DNA of 64,000 nt from a virus: the IMG/VR virus record IMGVR_UViG_3300031414_000008, positions 32,001-96,000 of that record. The stretch is one strand, 5' to 3'. The translations under genes and the position numbers were made by a program. How positions within the stretch are numbered: the first letter of the stretch is position 1; each line of letters opens with the position of its first letter. Of this stretch, positions 37,851 through 60,125 are shown one piece after another. The notes beneath the pieces are model-generated. The model was not told the DNA's origin, did not search any database, and saw only the letters and a list, made by a program, of their open reading frames with translations.

Positions 37851-37911
37851 ACTTTCCTTGGGTGATCGGAGGACCGACACCCACTTCACCCTCGTTTTGG
37901 AGAACCATACG

Positions 37912-39153
37912 ATGAAGCAATACAAATTAGCTGTAGTTATCGGCCGCATGCAATTCCTGCACAATGGCCATATTCACCTGTTCAATGAAGCTGCCAAGAA
38001 GGCAGAACAGATTCTCGTCCTCGTCGGCTCGTCCGATAAGGCACCGTCCCCAAGCAATCCTTTTAACTACCAACAGCGTGAGAAGATCGTCTACGGCGCC
38101 CTGAAGGAAGCCGGGATCACTGACGCTCTGAATTCCCGCGTCGGCGTCCTGCCACTTCCGGATGACTATCTGGAAGACCAGTGGATTGCCAACGTGATCA
38201 ACGCCGTCCAGACCTACGCGGAGAACCAGATCGGCGAAACCGGTCAGTTGATCCGTGACGAAGACATTGTTCTGGTTGGCCATGAGAAAGATGCCTCCTC
38301 ATACTACCTGCAGATGTTCCCGCAGTGGGCCTTCTACAATGCCCCGAACGACCGCGGCCTGAATGCCACCGACTTCCGTAAAGAGCTCTTCGATCGCCTG
38401 CCGGCCCGGGACCCTCAGTTTATTGCCAAGCTGCTTAAGCTGACGCAACCCCTGTCCCCGTTTGAATCTGCAGCGTTCTGCCAGGATGTCGCTAGCATTC
38501 TGGAAGAACATTATCCAGAACTGAACCAGCACCTGGGCACTAAACCTTCTGGCGATCTGCGTGCCTTGGACATGACCCACCTGAAGCTGAACTCGCCGAA
38601 AGCCATGCATCCATTCCTGGAAGAGTACATCCGCTCGGAAGAGTACATGAACATGGTGGCGGAGAACGGTCAGTACGCCGATGAGAAGCTGTCCTGGGGT
38701 ATGGCACCGTATCCGGTGACCTTCGTGACCACCGACGCCGTCGTCACTCACCGTTCCTCGATCCTGATGATTCGCCGTAAGAACCATCCGGGTAAAGGCC
38801 TGTGGGCACTCCCAGGCGGATTCCTGGGCGCTAAAGAATGGATCCGTGACTCAATCATCCGTGAACTGCGTGAAGAGACACGTATCGCCGTGGCGAACGA
38901 AGATCTCCTGCGTATCATGCAGCCAATCAAAGTGTTCGATAACCCAGGCCGTTCACTGCGTGGCCGTGTCATTACACACGCCGCTCGTTTTAACCTGGAT
39001 CACCTGGGCTTAACGAAGCGTCCGAAGGTGCGTGCCGATGATGATGCTGAAGCGGTCCGCTGGTTCTCGTTCGGTGAAATCCTGAAGGCCGACAAGTCGC
39101 TCTTCGAAGATCACGCTGAAATCATCCGCCGTCTCGTTTTCTCACGAGGTTGA
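37912..39153 (+). CDS. nadM: Bifunctional NMN adenylyltransferase / Nudix hydrolase (NadM-Nudix)
   Basis: GRMQFLHNGH, SNPFNY..R, VGHEKDASSYYL..FP.W; WALPGGF..E..IRELREET. Confidence 0.92.
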   Translation: MKQYKLAVVIGRMQFLHNGHIHLFNEAAKKAEQILVLVGSSDKAPSPSNPFNYQQREKIVYGALKEAGITDALNSRVGVLPLPDDYLEDQWIANVINAVQTYAENQIGETGQLIRDEDIVLVGHEKDASSYYLQMFPQWAFYNAPNDRGLNATDFRKELFDRLPARDPQFIAKLLKLTQPLSPFESAAFCQDVASILEEHYPELNQHLGTKPSGDLRALDMTHLKLNSPKAMHPFLEEYIRSEEYMNMVAENGQYADEKLSWGMAPYPVTFVTTDAVVTHRSSILMIRRKNHPGKGLWALPGGFLGAKEWIRDSIIRELREETRIAVANEDLLRIMQPIKVFDNPGRSLRGRVITHAARFNLDHLGLTKRPKVRADDDAEAVRWFSFGEILKADKSLFEDHAEIIRRLVFSRG

Positions 39154-41010: not shown

Positions 41011-42522
41011 ATGTTAGACATGAAGAAAGTTTTAGATGTCCGCCACCAGGCGAAAATGATGATCGAACTCCACGGCCAGCCGACTTCGTTCAACCGTATC
41101 TTCAACGAAATCAACTTCAACCCGCTGACCTGGATGGACGGTTACAAGTTCTCCCAGTTCCTGCAGTATCCGCTGAAGACGAACCACCTGCTCTCCTACA
41201 TCGAAGCCCGCTTCGGTGCCAAGCACGTTGACATTCCGTTCTACATCCAGCCGTTCCTGAAGGAGTTCATGACGCGTCCGCTGACCCAGCGTCACATCGA
41301 CGATCAGGCCGCGGCGAACGCTAAGTACGGTGCTCCGTTCAACAAAGCCGGCTACGAGCGTATCGTGAACGAGTTCGGTGGCCGCTGGCCGGTAGAGATC
41401 AAAGCGCTTCCGGAAGGCTGTATCGTGCCGCCTGGCGTGCCGATGACTTACATCGAAGAGACCCACCCGGACTTCGCGTGGATCGTGTCCCCGTTCGAGA
41501 CCGCGATGCTGCGTGGCGTGTGGTACATGACGACCGTTGGTGCCGTTTCTCTGGCCGTTCAGAAGACCATCCGCAAGTACCTGCTGGAATCCTCTGACCT
41601 GACACCGGTGGAAATCGAAGAGACGATGTCTCTGATGTTGAACGACTTCGGTGCCCGCGGTGCGACTGGCCATGAAGGTGCGATGCTGGGCGGTATGGCC
41701 CACCTGTTGACCGGTCAGCTCGGTACCGACACGATGGAAGCGGTAGACGGCCTGCGGATCTACTACCACCAGGAACGCGGCACCGGCGGCATGACGATCC
41801 CTGCCTCTGAGCACTCCACGGCCACGTCCTTTGGTCTGGAGCCGGAAGAAGAGATCGCGTTCAACAACCACATGATCGAGATGTTCGGTGACGGCTTCAT
41901 CTTCGCGTCGGTCATTGACTCTGCGGATGCTCACCGTAACGTACGCGATCACTGGGGTACGGCGAACCTTGATCGTGTCCTGGCGATGAAGGCCCGTCTG
42001 GTTCTGCGTCCGGATTCTGGCGTGCCGGAAGAAGAGTCGGTCAAAGTCCTCGAGCTGATGTGGGAACGCTTCGGCGGTACGACCAACTCCAAAGGCAAGC
42101 GTGTCCTGAATCCTAAGGTCCGCATGATCTACGGTGACGGCATCAACGAAGAGAGCATCGAGCGTATCTGTGCGGCCGTCGTCGGCACCGGCTTCTCCCT
42201 GGAGAACATGTGCTTCGGGATGGGCGGTGCACTCCTGCAGGACGTCGTTCGCGACACTGAACGCTATGCCATGAAGGCGTGCGAAATCGGTGATGACAAA
42301 GGTCGTCGTCCAATCGGCAAGAAGCCGAAGACTGACCCGACCAAGTCCTCGAAGTTCGGTCCACGCTACCTGTACCTGAACAACTTCGGTGAGATCATCC
42401 AGTACGCCGAGCCGGTGGTCGGTTGCGAAGAGCTGATGTCTGTGCGTTACCGCAACGGTCTGCTCCTCGAAGACTACACCTGTGACATGGTGCGTGACCT
42501 GATCGCTCATCAGCGTCACTAA
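41011..42522 (+). CDS. nadV: Nicotinamide phosphoribosyltransferase
   Basis: DGYKFSQ..QYP, YIEARFG, LNDFGARG, GTDT, PASEHS, VIDS, VLRPDSG, FGMGGALLQ..RDT..YAMKA. Confidence 0.95.
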   Translation: MLDMKKVLDVRHQAKMMIELHGQPTSFNRIFNEINFNPLTWMDGYKFSQFLQYPLKTNHLLSYIEARFGAKHVDIPFYIQPFLKEFMTRPLTQRHIDDQAAANAKYGAPFNKAGYERIVNEFGGRWPVEIKALPEGCIVPPGVPMTYIEETHPDFAWIVSPFETAMLRGVWYMTTVGAVSLAVQKTIRKYLLESSDLTPVEIEETMSLMLNDFGARGATGHEGAMLGGMAHLLTGQLGTDTMEAVDGLRIYYHQERGTGGMTIPASEHSTATSFGLEPEEEIAFNNHMIEMFGDGFIFASVIDSADAHRNVRDHWGTANLDRVLAMKARLVLRPDSGVPEEESVKVLELMWERFGGTTNSKGKRVLNPKVRMIYGDGINEESIERICAAVVGTGFSLENMCFGMGGALLQDVVRDTERYAMKACEIGDDKGRRPIGKKPKTDPTKSSKFGPRYLYLNNFGEIIQYAEPVVGCEELMSVRYRNGLLLEDYTCDMVRDLIAHQRH

Positions 42523-47785: not shown

Positions 47786-48241
47786 ATGGGAAAGGGTTAC
47801 GCTAAGTTACTGGTTGATCCAGTCGACGCGAAGAAGATCGAGAAAGCAGTCAAACCGTTCGGCGTGAAGTTGATGCCGCTTGAGAAACTGCACTTGACCC
47901 TAATGTACGACAAGTCGAATCCCGAGATCGACCCTGGCGTGAAGAAAGACACGCGGTATATTGCTACCGTGACGGGCGTCGAGCGGATGGGGGAGCCAGG
48001 CTCTAAGTGGGAAGCCGTAGCGCTGCAGCTGGAGTGCCCCGAACTGAAAGCCCGTCACTTGGCGCTGCGTGCCCGCGGGTTCAAGCACTCGTACGATGAA
48101 GTGAAGCTGCACGTCTCGCTGGCCTACGGTACCGAGAACGTCAAACTCATCCCGGTCATCGAGAAGCTCATCGCTGACGGCAAAATCCCTAACAAACTCC
48201 ACCTCGATCGCGAGACGTGGGAAGAACTGAAGGACGACTGA
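47786..48241 (+). CDS. acb1: Anti-CBASS 2H phosphodiesterase (Acb1-like)
   Basis: PLEKLHLTLMY and ARH..RARGFKHSYDEVKLHVSLAY match the two HxT/S motifs of T4 gp57B; LDRE near C-terminus. Confidence 0.85.
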   Translation: MGKGYAKLLVDPVDAKKIEKAVKPFGVKLMPLEKLHLTLMYDKSNPEIDPGVKKDTRYIATVTGVERMGEPGSKWEAVALQLECPELKARHLALRARGFKHSYDEVKLHVSLAYGTENVKLIPVIEKLIADGKIPNKLHLDRETWEELKDD

Positions 48242-51481: not shown

Positions 51482-51952
51482 ATGCTGTTAAAACAAACTG
51501 ATAATAAAGACATTCTCACCGCTGCTGCTGAACTCGCTCGTGAAGAAAAGCCCTACCGTATGAACGCGTCGCTCTCCGTGATTCACTGCCAGGACACTGG
51601 TCGTGTGCTCGTGACGCACCGTGCGAAGGATGGCCAGCTGGGTCTGCCGTGTGGCAAGGCCGATGCCGGTGAAATGACTCTCGAAACGGCCTACCGTGAA
51701 CTGGAAGAAGAAACCGGTGTGCGGAAGGTCGATCTGATTGACGGTCTCGGTTACATGCAGGACATCAACATGTCAGGCTGTATCGTCTCCGTCTATGTTG
51801 GCGTCGTACCGATCGAGCTCAAAGTGGGCCCTGAAGCTGGCTTTGAGAACGAAGGCCCGGCCTCATGGATGAAACCGGAGGATATTGCTAAGACACCGTC
51901 CCGTTTCCAGAACTTCAATACGGTGGTGCTCTTCAACGCCGGACTGATCTAA
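51482..51952 (+). CDS. Nudix hydrolase
   Basis: GKADAGEMTLETAYRELEEETG. Confidence 0.9.
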   Translation: MLLKQTDNKDILTAAAELAREEKPYRMNASLSVIHCQDTGRVLVTHRAKDGQLGLPCGKADAGEMTLETAYRELEEETGVRKVDLIDGLGYMQDINMSGCIVSVYVGVVPIELKVGPEAGFENEGPASWMKPEDIAKTPSRFQNFNTVVLFNAGLI

Positions 51953-52273: not shown

Positions 52274-52621
52274 ATGTATAAAGGATGGGGCGTGGGACGT
52301 GAAGTGCCTGCCAAGTATGTCTCCCAGGTCGTCGTTGAGTTGAAGTTCGATCACGGTGATGCAGACGGTACCACTCACGAAGAGCTCAAAGTCGCTCACG
52401 AGGATGTCGTCGAGTGTGCAAACTTCCTGGACCTGTGTGACAATACCGTTCCGGAGTCCGAAGGCGGCCCTGGGTACACGAAGCTGCCGGGCTACGAGAA
52501 GTTTGGGGAGGGCCTCTTCCCACCGGACTTGCACTATTCAGGCATGGCCTCCTTGGCGAGCTACCAATTCTATTACTATAATGGGCACGGCATGAAAAGC
52601 CTTGTCTATCTGGAGAGTTAA
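52274..52621 (+). CDS. Hypothetical protein
   Basis: AGGAG SD. Confidence 0.7.
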   Translation: MYKGWGVGREVPAKYVSQVVVELKFDHGDADGTTHEELKVAHEDVVECANFLDLCDNTVPESEGGPGYTKLPGYEKFGEGLFPPDLHYSGMASLASYQFYYYNGHGMKSLVYLES

Positions 52622-52622
52622 T

Positions 52623-53549
52623 ATGTGGAAAGAACAAGAAGTCCTGACGGGCAGTAACCCGAACGTAATGAAGTTCATCTTTCGTAACGACGACGCCATC
52701 GCGGAGAGCGTGCTGTACCAGTACCCGACGTTCAAAGACCGTACGGTGATGTGTGTGTCAACCCAGACCGGCTGCCCGATGGGCTGCTCCTTCTGCGGTA
52801 CCGGGAAGTTCTTCGGCCGTAATCTACGTGCCGATGAGATCGTGAACCAGGTGCAGTACATGCTGGACATGTTTGACGTCCCGCTGAACGACGTGATCCG
52901 TTCGCAAATCATGTTCATGTCGATGGGTGAACCCCTGCTGAACATGGACGAAATGGTCGGTGCCCTGCTGTTCCTGGCGGATAACTACCCTCGTACCGCC
53001 CTGTTGATCTCGACCTCCGGACCGAAGACGTCGGGATGGATCGACTTCATGGACATCGCCGAGCGTCTGCCGCAGATTGGCCTGCAGTTCTCCGTCCACG
53101 AGTCGACTGACGAAGCCCGCGACCGTCTGATCCCGATGAAGGCCAAGCTGAACCTTGAAGAGATCGCGGCTAAGGGCCTGGAGTTCTACCTCCGGACCAA
53201 GCGTCGTCCGTTCTTCAACTACTGCGTGCACCCAGGGAATGCCTCCGATGCTGACATCGAACGGTTAGAAGCCCTGTTCGATCCAGACGTTTGGTGTGCC
53301 ACCCTCTCGGTCATCTGTGAGAAAGACGAGACGAATGCCGACGCCGTCGCTCGCCACTTAGACCTCGTTCAGGACTTCTCCGGACGTCTGGTCGCTAAAG
53401 GCTACGACACCCGCGTGTTCAACCCGGCTGGCCAGGACGACATCGGCGGCGGTTGCGGGCAACTCTGGCAAGTCCAGAAGTTCGCGGCGGAGCATCCGGA
53501 AATCATGAAGCAATCACCAGGAGATAAGATCCGTGTCCGTGTACAGTGA
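52623..53549 (+). CDS. rlmN: RlmN/Cfr-family (class A) radical SAM RNA methyltransferase
   Basis: ESV, MCVSTQTGCPMGCSFCGTG, FMSMGEPL, IST, SVH, DIGGGCGQL. Confidence 0.88.
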   Translation: MWKEQEVLTGSNPNVMKFIFRNDDAIAESVLYQYPTFKDRTVMCVSTQTGCPMGCSFCGTGKFFGRNLRADEIVNQVQYMLDMFDVPLNDVIRSQIMFMSMGEPLLNMDEMVGALLFLADNYPRTALLISTSGPKTSGWIDFMDIAERLPQIGLQFSVHESTDEARDRLIPMKAKLNLEEIAAKGLEFYLRTKRRPFFNYCVHPGNASDADIERLEALFDPDVWCATLSVICEKDETNADAVARHLDLVQDFSGRLVAKGYDTRVFNPAGQDDIGGGCGQLWQVQKFAAEHPEIMKQSPGDKIRVRVQ

Positions 53550-53850
53550 AATCGTTCTCGGCGAGCCGTGTATTCGCCCCATCCACTTCAATAAGTATGA
53601 GTTCTTCGTCCAGTTCGCCACCGGTGAGTGTGACATCGTGGTGGTCAACCCGGCGCTAGGCCTCTCTACGGCGAACCTGCTGGAACAAGCAAAAGCGCTC
53701 AGCGGAGAGGATGCGTACGAACTCCTGAAGGGGCAGTTATCGTTGGATTGGCCGGTGAATTTGGGCTCGGGTGATTGGGCTGACCTTTCATCTTTTGACA
53801 TGTTCTACTACAACTTCAAGGGTGTGAAGCAGAACGTTATTCTTAAGTAA
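53533..53850 (+). CDS. Hypothetical protein
   Basis: GGAG SD, GTG start. Confidence 0.6.
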   Translation: MSVYSEIVLGEPCIRPIHFNKYEFFVQFATGECDIVVVNPALGLSTANLLEQAKALSGEDAYELLKGQLSLDWPVNLGSGDWADLSSFDMFYYNFKGVKQNVILK

Positions 53851-56515: not shown

Positions 56516-57394
56516 ATGATGGAACTCACCCTTAAGAAACCTGAACTTCGCGTCTTCTATTGCTCTGATCTGCACTCTGACTTCTGGAAATACAGCGTCG
56601 CCCCGTTCTTCGACCGTGTGTCTGCGGAGGACTACGACCTCTTCATTTTCGCCGGCGACGTCGGGGAGTGGGTGGATGATAACTGCCGGGAAATCTACGA
56701 GTGCATCCTTGCCCACGGTAAACCAATCCTGATGGTGCCCGGGAACCACGAGTTCTACCGCGGGGAGTACCACAAAGTGATGGACGAACTGGGCAAGTTC
56801 GCTGAAGACAACCCGCTCTTTTACCTCCTTGAGGACAACTTCGTCGACCTGACCGAGCAGAAGATTCGCGTGTGGGGCTCGACGTTCTGGACTGACTTCC
56901 AGGGTGACCCGCTGGCGATCTCCGTGGCGAAGCGTCGCATGAACGATTACCGTCAGATCTACTTCCAGCGTCCGTCAGGTGGTGTGCTGCTCGAGCCGGA
57001 GGATACGGTCGTGATGAATGACCGGGCCCGCACCTCCCTCGTGGAACAGTCTAAGGACCTGCCGGAGGGTTGGCGTCTCGTGGTCGTGACCCATCACGCT
57101 CCGTTCCGAGAGTCGACACCGAAGCAATACCGGATGCCGGAATACATGGAAGGCGCCAAGATGAACAAGGCGTACTCCAACGACCTCTACGACTGGTGTG
57201 AACGCAAGGGTGTCTACCCGGAGCTCTGGATTCACGGGCACATCCATGATCGGGCGAACTATACCGTCGAATGGGATAACGGGAAGGCGTGCACCGTGCA
57301 GTCCAACCCGTTCGGGTATCCGGGCGAACAGAACCATGATGCGATCAAAAAGCACTTCCTGACGTTCTCAAAGAATGGCGTAACGGTGGTATAA
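56516..57394 (+). CDS. Calcineurin-like metallophosphoesterase
   Basis: SDLH, AGD, PGNHE, THHAP, HGHIH. Confidence 0.92.
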   Translation: MMELTLKKPELRVFYCSDLHSDFWKYSVAPFFDRVSAEDYDLFIFAGDVGEWVDDNCREIYECILAHGKPILMVPGNHEFYRGEYHKVMDELGKFAEDNPLFYLLEDNFVDLTEQKIRVWGSTFWTDFQGDPLAISVAKRRMNDYRQIYFQRPSGGVLLEPEDTVVMNDRARTSLVEQSKDLPEGWRLVVVTHHAPFRESTPKQYRMPEYMEGAKMNKAYSNDLYDWCERKGVYPELWIHGHIHDRANYTVEWDNGKACTVQSNPFGYPGEQNHDAIKKHFLTFSKNGVTVV

Positions 57395-58752: not shown

Positions 58753-58804
58753 ATATCAAACCTGCAGAGGTCAAATCTCTCAAACTCGAACTGGAGCTCG
58801 AATA

Positions 58805-59050
58805 ATGCTGCCCCGCTCATTCTGGATTGTCTTCGTCATCTTCTTGTGCCTCTTAGCGTGGGACGCTTGGGCTGACGATAAGAACACGCACTATTGTATT
58901 CAAATGGATAACGGCAGCAAGACGGTGACGCAGTGCCAGAACAGTACGGTTACCATCGTGGACAGTTTCAGCGATAAGGTTGTCGTCTGTTCGACCAACC
59001 CTTCTGAAACCCCTCGTTGCCAGACTTTGGCATTTAAGGAGAAGAAATGA
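58805..59050 (+). CDS. Putative exported Cys-containing protein
   Basis: Signal-like AWA-D; four mature-region Cys. Confidence 0.65.
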   Translation: MLPRSFWIVFVIFLCLLAWDAWADDKNTHYCIQMDNGSKTVTQCQNSTVTIVDSFSDKVVVCSTNPSETPRCQTLAFKEKK

Positions 59051-59289
59051 CGCAGGTTAACACGGACTACGTGAATCTCGGTCCCGAGGTAAAGGCCCTC
59101 ACCGCACTGAAAGTCAACGAGTTTTTCCAGTTCCCGGAGGACGGATGCGTGTACCGCGTGATTCATAAAGGTACCGAGGACGCCCTGTGCCTCGATCTTA
59201 CCGATCTCCGGGCGAGCATCTTCAAGTTGGACATGGACGTTGAACCTCGCGAAGTCAACAAGATCGACATCAAGGTGGAGCTCCTATGA
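59047..59289 (+). CDS. Small hypothetical protein
   Basis: ATGA overlap, AAGGAG SD. Confidence 0.7.
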   Translation: MTQVNTDYVNLGPEVKALTALKVNEFFQFPEDGCVYRVIHKGTEDALCLDLTDLRASIFKLDMDVEPREVNKIDIKVELL

Positions 59290-59888
59290 ACTACGAGATC
59301 CACCTCACGGTACCGGTCGATCCAGAGAAGCCTGAACAGCTCGAGAAGTTCAAGAGCGTGTGTGTGGACCTCGGCGTCAAGGCGATCATCATCGATGCGA
59401 ACCCACTGACTGACGTCATGACCTCCTTCAAGATGCAGACGGACGATCAGAATGCCGTGTTCACGGAGATGGCCCGTCAGATGCTAGTCTTGGGCACCTT
59501 TGGGTTCCGAGCCATCCGGACGAAGGTCGAGACTGACCTGACGCACCCGTCTGCTATGACACCGCTGCCGAATCAGTATTTCGAGTCCCATCTCCAGGTC
59601 TGGGTTCGGGATGATCAGCTTGAGGACTTGAAGGACTTGGCCCATGGCCTGGACTTCTACGTCTCACGCAATGCGTTCAAGGCACCGGTCGACGGGCGTC
59701 ACATTCGCATGATCACCGTACGTCAGTACCACACGACGCCGGATCGCTTCACTACTCGCATCACCGCTCTTCGCAAAGTTCTGCCTGGACAAGGCTATGA
59801 CTTCGCTAAGGATATGGAAATCGAGTTCGCCCTGTTCGATTCAAACTCTTCGCACGACACCCCTTGGATTGAATCTCGGGGGTGGTAA
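59286..59888 (+). CDS. Hypothetical protein with duplicated (Y/F)ExH motif
   Basis: YEIHLTV and FESHLQV. Confidence 0.7.
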   Translation: MNYEIHLTVPVDPEKPEQLEKFKSVCVDLGVKAIIIDANPLTDVMTSFKMQTDDQNAVFTEMARQMLVLGTFGFRAIRTKVETDLTHPSAMTPLPNQYFESHLQVWVRDDQLEDLKDLAHGLDFYVSRNAFKAPVDGRHIRMITVRQYHTTPDRFTTRITALRKVLPGQGYDFAKDMEIEFALFDSNSSHDTPWIESRGW

Positions 59889-59894
59889 ACGCAG

Positions 59895-59914
59895 GGAAGC
59901 TTCGGCTTCCTTTT
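59895..59914 (+). terminator. Intrinsic terminator
   Basis: ggaagc-ttcg-gcttcc-tttt. Confidence 0.8.
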
Positions 59915-59924
59915 AGGAGGAATT

Positions 59925-60125
59925 ATGAGTGTTCACTTAGAGATTTACCTTCGCTTGCGTCAACTGGAGCTCGCCCTGGCAGTACCCGGAGCGCTCGAAA
60001 ACTTACGGGACGTGAACGGTAACGCTCTCGGGTTCACGATCAGGATATCCGAGGCGATTGACAACTACGAGCTGGCCTACCCGTACCTAAAACAACCCTC
60101 CCCTCGGGATAAGCAGTCAATCTGA
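59925..60125 (+). CDS. Hypothetical protein
   Basis: AGGAGG SD. Confidence 0.7.
   Translation: MSVHLEIYLRLRQLELALAVPGALENLRDVNGNALGFTIRISEAIDNYELAYPYLKQPSPRDKQSI

Follow-up and report, generated by a model that had tools for sequence, protein, structure and literature searches.

A short phage-borne relative of RlmN and Cfr with a retained catalytic kit, lost RNA contacts and a genomic link to NAD+ salvage

RlmN and Cfr are the textbook radical methyl synthases. RlmN is a dual-specificity enzyme, responsible for m2A2503 in 23S rRNA and m2A37 in tRNA, and Cfr, which forms m8A2503 in 23S rRNA and confers PhLOPSA resistance (phenicols, lincosamides, oxazolidinones, pleuromutilins and streptogramin A), is a clinically important resistance enzyme. 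The present report deals with a related gene, P0001, located at positions 52623-53549 (plus strand) of a 64,000-nucleotide stretch of viral DNA (the window), which corresponds to positions 32001-96000 of the genome IMGVR_UViG_3300031414_000008 in IMG/VR. Its 308-aa product combines a known chemistry and fold with membership of a separate clade, and its substrate is probably non-canonical.

The manner in which the described enzymes hold their RNA is best seen in the cryo-electron microscopy structure of Cfr cross-linked to an 87-nt rRNA (bioRxiv 10.64898/2026.02.27.707579). According to this work, the substrate of both Cfr and RlmN is naked 23S rRNA folded in an L-shape. The N-terminal HhH2 domain anchors the junction of helices H90/91/92, whose place is taken in the RlmN-tRNA structure by the acceptor and D arms of tRNA, and the radical SAM (S-adenosylmethionine) domain grips the H90 stem, the counterpart of the anticodon stem.

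The reading frame of P0001 starts with the ATG at 52623 and its stop codon ends at 53549. The gene, its start signal and the codons of its catalytic elements are the following:

52612..52617, + strand: ribosome-binding site GGAGAG, 5 nt 5' of the ATG, read directly from the sequence
52623..53549, + strand: short RlmN/Cfr-like radical SAM methyl synthase gene, P0001 (open reading frame (ORF) and translation; TIGR00048 match below the cut-off; RlmN and Cfr matches in the PDB; AlphaFold (AF2) model with the RlmN fold)
52752..52754, + strand: codon of Cys44, the resolving cysteine in MCVS, equivalent to RlmN C118 and Cfr C105 (alignments; cysteine in 78 of 84 clade members)
52773..52796, + strand: C51-x3-C55-x2-C58, the [4Fe-4S] cluster motif (invariant in alignments of 104 and of 84 sequences)
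52917..52934, + strand: MSMGEP, residues 99-104 (the form typical of the clade, against MGMGE(P/A) in RlmN and Cfr)
53445..53465, + strand: GGGCGQL loop with Cys278, the methyl-carrier cysteine, equivalent to RlmN C355 and Cfr C338 (alignments; cysteine in 77 of 84 clade members)

Residue equivalences were taken from an alignment of P0001 with E. coli RlmN and three Cfr variants, in which the loop before GGGCGQL is one residue longer in P0001 than in RlmN and Cfr. The CxxxCxxC, MCVS, GGCGQL and MSMGEP motifs named in the initial annotation of this gene are therefore all present (C51/C55/C58, C44, C278 and residues 99-104, respectively). Its description of GEP as an RlmN-like trait has to be given up, since Cfr(C) and Cfr(D) also carry MGMGEP and the motif is not diagnostic.

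Profile and structure comparisons agree on the origin of the protein. The TIGR00048 profile matches P0001 with E=1.6e-35 (122.7 bits), solved RlmN chains, including 6fz6 and 3rf9, match at E=1.8e-23 to 5.5e-21 and Cfr 9p0p at 5.4e-18, and the match to the radical SAM family PF04055 lies above the Pfam cut-off. Moreover, an AF2 model built on 84 relatives reached a pLDDT (predicted local distance difference test) of 93.3, and in a Foldseek search with this model RlmN and Cfr structures took the first 11 places (E 8e-20 to 3e-14), well ahead of the next fold at 3e-06. With RlmN (PDB 3RFA, 5HR7 and 6FZ6) P0001 has in common the fold (Foldseek E 8e-20 to 5e-17, TM 0.66-0.73, ~27-29% identity), the beta-sheet extension, CxxxCxxC, both mechanistic cysteines, E105 (E28 in P0001) and the DDI..CGQL loop; with Cfr (PDB 9P0P), at 28-29% identity, it has the fold and the catalytic residues in common. 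As judged from alignments and model, this is true homology to RlmN/Cfr and not a chance match of motifs. The features of the class-A superfamily, namely a partial TIM-barrel radical SAM fold, the beta-extension, CxxxCxxC and two extra mechanistic cysteines, are found together, and P0001 is thus predicted to be an intact class-A radical SAM methyl synthase with an RlmN/Cfr-type catalytic kit.

Judged by profile scores and phylogeny, P0001 is neither RlmN nor Cfr and belongs to a separate, mostly viral sister clade. Its 122.7 bits fall below the 290-bit cut-off of the RlmN equivalog TIGR00048, and it obtains 82.0 and 87.4 bits with the Cfr profiles TIGR04432 and NF000424, against cut-offs of 550 and 530. 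In a maximum-likelihood tree of 112 sequences it lies within 51 rows, 46 of them short forms, which are split off by a branch of length 0.64 with a support of 99 in the Shimodaira-Hasegawa-like approximate likelihood ratio test (SH-aLRT). E. coli RlmN, Cfr, Cfr(C), Cfr(D) and all the canonical long forms are placed on the other side of this main split, where Cfr, Cfr(C) and Cfr(D) form a clade of their own (SH-aLRT 99). What had been called an RlmN/Cfr-type methylase thus holds as regards the class-A chemistry with both cysteines and the kinship with the RlmN/Cfr superfamily, but not as an identification with either enzyme, and there is no evidence for a PhLOPSA resistance function of P0001.

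A search of the full library recovered a graded series of short relatives (270-320 aa, with the cluster motif at residue ~45-60) at E 1e-122 to 1e-30, canonical RlmN/Cfr forms of 340-380 aa turning up only at ~1e-25; P0001, by its length and the position of its cluster, is one of the short forms of the sister clade. Members of the clade are carried by unrelated large phages, such as Vibrio phages (129-139 kb), the T4-like Aeromonas phage Ahp1, Xanthomonas and Stenotrophomonas phages (106-109 kb) and a 462-kb uncultured phage, and they occur on at least 340 IMG/VR contigs; others, at 42-58% identity, come from prophage-like regions or binned contigs of bacteria (many phyla) and archaea (some phyla). 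The nearest atlas clusters are 67-84% viral. On sequence grounds, therefore, the clade has hundreds of members, spread over many phyla and lying on viral contigs and in regions that resemble prophages; full-text literature searches found no paper on phage RlmN-like enzymes. Some homologues (P0271, P0276 and P0277, of ~640 aa) are interrupted by inteins, recognised by Intein_splicing and LAGLIDADG Pfam domains.

The absence of the N-terminal domain of RlmN, already pointed out in the initial annotation, is clear: residue ~11 of P0001 aligns with RlmN residue ~75-90, so that the HhH2 domain is absent, and Pfam RlmN_N (PF21016) was found neither in P0001 nor anywhere in the 182.6-kb genome, even at E<=1. 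The model starts with the beta-sheet extension, so that the missing part is confined to the helical HhH2 domain. The loss of contacts goes further when the list of Cfr contacts from the cryo-electron microscopy work (bioRxiv 10.64898/2026.02.27.707579) is mapped onto the phage clade by alignment:

Cfr N-domain contacts, including Y24/R25/Q28, which anchor the RNA junction: absent in the phage clade
Cfr S182/R184/R185 (RlmN S204/R206/R207), which hold the H90 stem: replaced in the clade by P/T(A)/A, with the loop shortened by 4 residues
Cfr S103/S151/S153/S187, which bind the phosphate of U2504, the 3' neighbour: V42/Q95/M97/L128 in the clade, all strongly conserved
Cfr R327, which contacts the target ribose: F266 in the clade
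Cfr R249/K250, which hold the H90 stem: retained in the clade as R194/R195

Furthermore, P0001 is acidic (pI 4.9, net charge -11), the median pI of the clade core is 6.0 versus 8.5 on the RlmN/Cfr side, and the clade conserves basic residues at only nine positions. P0001 therefore differs from RlmN in its missing HhH2 domain, the replacement of S204/R206/R207, its acidity, its separate clade and the linkage of the clade genes to NAD+ (nicotinamide adenine dinucleotide) salvage described below, and from Cfr in the lack of the Y24/R25/Q28 and S182/R184/R185 contacts and in lying outside the Cfr clade. P0001 has kept E28, the two mechanistic cysteines and the C-terminal loop that binds the base (DDI..CGQL), which indicates that the chemistry, and probably an adenine-type base, have been retained, unlike the large RNA-binding surface. 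The earlier suggestion that the lost domain points to a different substrate is reinforced by these results, as the stem-binding arginines and the phosphate-binding serines have been replaced too and the protein is acidic; most likely, the substrate of P0001 is neither 23S A2503 nor a whole tRNA.

Several close relatives (P0022, P0036, P0040 and P0044, and also P0025, P0027 and P0030) carry N-terminal extensions unrelated to the HhH2 domain of RlmN, one type of ~85 aa, which is conserved, and another of ~55 aa with a CxxC pair. These extensions are possibly alternative docking domains.

The most recurrent neighbours of the clade genes belong to NAD+ salvage. The census covered the window, four isolate phages and loci of viral (80) and genome (66) origin; ORFs were called and clustered, and the loci were dereplicated at 80% identity of the RlmN-like protein into 93 groups, which are not phylogenetically independent; flanks covered 6-10 kb and neighbours were identified by Pfam. 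Five divergent clade members (P0129, P0163, P0166, P0170 and P0176) lie on contigs of only 1.4-3.6 kb. A core NAD-salvage gene was present in the flanks of 33 of the 93 groups, the families being NAPRTase/NAMPT (31 groups), NMNAT/NUDIX (25), nicotinamidase-like (PncA-like) isochorismatase (11), PRPP-synthase-like Adps (9) and NMNAT (7). The nearest such gene lay within less than 300 bp in 18 groups, when 1.4 would be expected under uniform placement in the flanks (binomial p ~8e-17). It was upstream in 20 groups and downstream in 13, and the occurrence of both orientations indicates that the linkage survives rearrangement.

On a larger scale, PF04095 was found on 21 of the 31 large viral contigs carrying an RlmN-like gene (within 4 kb of it on 11 of these and 22-105 kb away on the other 10) and in four of the five complete phage genomes that were inspected. 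In Vibrio phage 495E54-1 the RlmN-like gene directly follows an Adps-like/Namat-like pair of the NARP1 type. Gene fusions have also been found: P0125 (contig L010) is an RlmN-like protein fused to a NUDIX domain, its gene being directly followed by NAPRTase and NMNAT genes, P0250 joins the RlmN-like domain to an isochorismatase domain of the nicotinamidase family, and P0270 joins it to a histidine phosphatase. No partner gene is universal, and besides the NAD-salvage genes no family recurs in more than ~10% of the groups; RtcB, a CCA-adding enzyme, NADAR and metallophosphoesterase are recurrent neighbours at lower frequency.

The commonest and tightest neighbours of the clade are thus those of the NAD+-reconstitution pathways NARP1 (Adps and Namat) and NARP2 (NAMPT and NMNAT-Nudix) (bioRxiv 10.1101/2024.02.11.579819), although the link is a genomic one and is absent in about two thirds of the loci. 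No radical SAM or RlmN-like component is mentioned in the NARP1, NARP2 and NARP3 papers (bioRxiv 10.1101/2024.02.11.579819 for NARP1/2), and full-text literature searches brought up no radical SAM enzyme tied to these pathways.

In the phage studied here, both halves of a NARP2-type pair are present in the window, together with other genes of interest:

37858..39153, + strand: NMNAT-NUDIX bifunctional gene, half of a NARP2-type pair (PF01467 and PF00293)
41011..42522, + strand: NAMPT (NAPRTase family), the other half of the pair, 10 kb upstream of P0001 (PF04095, E=2.7e-32, and PF18127; also found in the genome search)
47786..48241, + strand: Acb1-like 2H phosphodiesterase directed against CBASS, the cyclic oligonucleotide-based antiphage signalling system (PF23474, E=1.3e-16, 61 bits against a cut-off of 27)
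51482..51952, + strand: stand-alone NUDIX hydrolase, ending ~670 bp upstream of P0001 (PF00293, E=1.4e-15; NMNAT/NUDIX profile match at -650 bp)
52274..52621, + strand: 115-aa ORF of phrog_8562 directly upstream, function unassigned, homologue of Arash gp134 (PHROG match; no Pfam match)
56516..57394, + strand: calcineurin-like metallophosphoesterase (PF00149, E=5.6e-15; a recurrent neighbour of the clade, members of this family occurring nearby in 7 viral groups)

The NUDIX gene, at ~0.7 kb, is the only close neighbour of the NAD type in the window. The Acb1-like gene marks the region as one of counter-defence, and from its gene content the surroundings of P0001 look like a counter-defence and auxiliary block. 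The Arash counterpart of the Acb1-like gene, by position only and without alignment, is apparently gp143, annotated 'RNA ligase'. A near-identical relative of the phage, L014 (IMG/VR, 182,612 bp), encodes the RNA ligase RtcB 7 kb downstream of its RlmN-like gene, in the segment L014:16446-19106; RtcB was undetectable in the window, where the corresponding segment, 58753-59962, is replaced by unrelated DNA.

The source record is that of a phage, as had been assumed, with a genome of 182,632 bp, terminal repeats and 25 tRNA genes. Among isolates, Salmonella phage Arash comes closest; P0001 shares 92.8% identity with its gp133, a 'hypothetical protein' that goes undiscussed in the paper describing that phage. 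One of the tRNA genes, at genome positions 112315-112389 (outside the window), has a CUA anticodon of the amber suppressor type and is labelled Pyl by ARAGORN, and the phage tRNA-Arg(ACG) has G37, versus A37 in E. coli.

P0001 forms part of a long string of genes, all on one strand. A consensus scan for sigma-70 promoters and terminators gave counts not above those of shuffled sequence and no convincing terminator. The TAA of the upstream 115-aa ORF (52619-52621) directly abuts the ATG of P0001, which suggests translational coupling of the two genes. This ORF and that at 53533-53850, on the other side of P0001, have a common C-terminal motif, ..F/Y-YYN-x-G-x-K.. (pairwise BLASTP E=5e-05), and to judge from it may be diverged paralogues; Arash gp134, homologous to the upstream ORF, is listed as a virion protein by mass spectrometry. 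The upstream ORF was also considered as a split-off N-domain of P0001 and rejected, as it has no Pfam match and PF21016 is missing genome-wide; it resembles neither type of N-terminal extension seen in the longer relatives, and other phages do not conserve it next to their RlmN-like gene.

Taken together, the lost RNA grip, the acidic surface and the remodelled, conserved subsite beside the base pocket, on the one hand, and the fusions with NAD/ADPR (ADP-ribose) enzymes and a tight linkage to them whatever the gene order, on the other, point to a substrate from the NAD pool. Our preferred reading, which we hold tentatively and at slightly less than an even chance, is that P0001 C-methylates an adenine nucleotide belonging to the NAD+/ADP-ribose pool, be it NAD+, ADPR or a molecule or signal derived from ADPR, in the service of counter-defence. 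It is conceivable too, and we put it forward with some reserve, that in a phage-spread branch of RlmN/Cfr the substrate has changed from RNA to a small nucleotide of this pool, of the adenine (or pyridine) type, from which a C-methylated NAD-type molecule would be made.

By analogy with the established mechanism of RlmN and Cfr (bioRxiv 10.64898/2026.02.27.707579), one SAM would methylate Cys278 in a ping-pong manner, and the reduced [4Fe-4S] cluster held by C51/C55/C58 would split a second SAM to give a 5'-deoxyadenosyl radical, which would take a hydrogen from methyl-Cys278. The methylene radical so formed would attack the bound base at an sp2 carbon, most probably adenine C2 or C8; the sequence makes no call between these two positions, the clade lying outside both the RlmN and the Cfr reference clades. 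Cys44 would then resolve the covalent adduct, leaving the C-methyl group, and the enzyme would act beside the phage NAD+-reconstitution genes in counter-defence.

A number of points weigh against a substrate from the NAD pool. All characterised RlmN/Cfr members known to us act on RNA, and we know of no class-A radical SAM methylase that takes a small nucleotide or molecule; two SAM per turnover, moreover, are poorly suited to bulk conversion of a metabolite. R194/R195, the beta-sheet extension and the DDI..CGQL loop are all retained, so that a short RNA loop remains compatible with the protein. As for the linkage, two thirds of the dereplicated loci are without an NAD gene within 6-10 kb, 10 of the 31 large contigs are without any PF04095, and in the present phage the NAMPT and NMNAT-NUDIX pair is 10-14 kb upstream and not adjacent; Stenotrophomonas phage ANB28, the plainest exception to the linkage, has no NAPRTase (PF04095), and its RlmN-like gene lies inside a tRNA array. 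Linkage in phages can mirror anti-defence islands and not a shared pathway, neighbour detection favours long conserved enzymes over small, fast-evolving proteins, and each of the fusions is a single rare cluster.

Among the alternatives, the one that deserves most attention, a serious contender although in our view less likely than not, is a minimal adenine C-methylase of tRNA (or small RNA) recognising only an anticodon-type stem-loop, and for that reason in no need of a docking domain for the L-shape; it would place m2A37 or m8A on host or phage tRNAs, for instance for tuning of decoding or as a block to anticodon nucleases. The activities of the characterised relatives, which all methylate RNA adenines, and the retained beta-extension, R194/R195 and base-binding loop fit such an enzyme. 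A37 is present in the phage tRNAs Asp-GUC, Gln-UUG, His-GUG and Glu-UUC (of 25 tRNA genes in all), which belong to the isotypes that bear m2A37 in E. coli (PMC10838301). Of 56 viral groups, 21 have tRNA genes no more than 10 kb from the gene and 6 have them within 2 kb; genes for RtcB and for a CCA-adding enzyme are each found close by in 5 groups, and the ANB28 gene, as said above, sits in a tRNA array. Nevertheless, tRNA genes are far less tightly linked to the clade than NAD genes, those of the window itself are 14-30 kb off, and Vibrio phage 495E54-1 has the gene with a single tRNA gene. Hosts already have RlmN for m2A37, and the acidic protein has lost the docking domain, both stem-binding arginines and the serines for the neighbouring phosphate. 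The idea that the enzyme serves the phage's own tRNA set, also considered, is weakened by the tRNA counts of carrier phages (25, 26, 5 and 1). The rewriting of host RNA modification proposed in the initial annotation is accordingly narrowed: shielding of tRNA from anticodon nucleases is possible, retuning of ribosomes at A2503 is unlikely, and the most recurrent genomic link is with NAD+ salvage and not with tRNA or rRNA.

A true analogue of RlmN or Cfr, methylating 23S rRNA A2503 at C2 or C8 and thereby retuning ribosomes or drug sensitivity, would account for the homology with both enzymes and for the intact catalytic kit, but it seems very improbable: P0001 scores under both sets of curated cut-offs and lies outside both clades, the L-shaped 23S rRNA is held by an N-domain and arginines that it does not have, and little new rRNA would be expected in a lytic infection. 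We see hardly any likelihood, finally, in a novel DNA modification of phages by which adenine would be methylated, either in the DNA itself or at the level of a deoxynucleotide precursor. This is suggested by P0254 (759 aa), a short-form relative outside the clade fused to an HD-domain triphosphohydrolase of the dGTPase type, by the ability of NUDIX enzymes to clear canonical dNTPs and by the spread of the family over unrelated large phages; no other DNA-modification genes are linked, however, the carrier phages come from unrelated lineages with differing replication machinery, and the slow turnover to be expected of such an enzyme would not allow a genome to be modified in bulk.

Genes such as P0001 are easily annotated 'rRNA methyltransferase N' or flagged as Cfr-like, and labels of this kind are already found on the ANB28 gene and in JGI names. 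The clade keeps the chemistry and has lost the RNA grip and, since genes of the family are often found beside those that rebuild NAD+, the target is probably not the ribosome or tRNA site that the name implies. If the anticodon loop were the target, P0001 would be a minimal tRNA-modifying enzyme of counter-defence. If the link with NAD is functional, there would be an unknown reaction in the NAD+-centred counter-defence of phages and a new class of substrate for the enzyme family: a C-methylated NAD-type product would be an undescribed step in the conflict between phages and bacteria over NAD+, and a nucleotide of the NAD pool would be the first small-molecule substrate of this class of enzymes.

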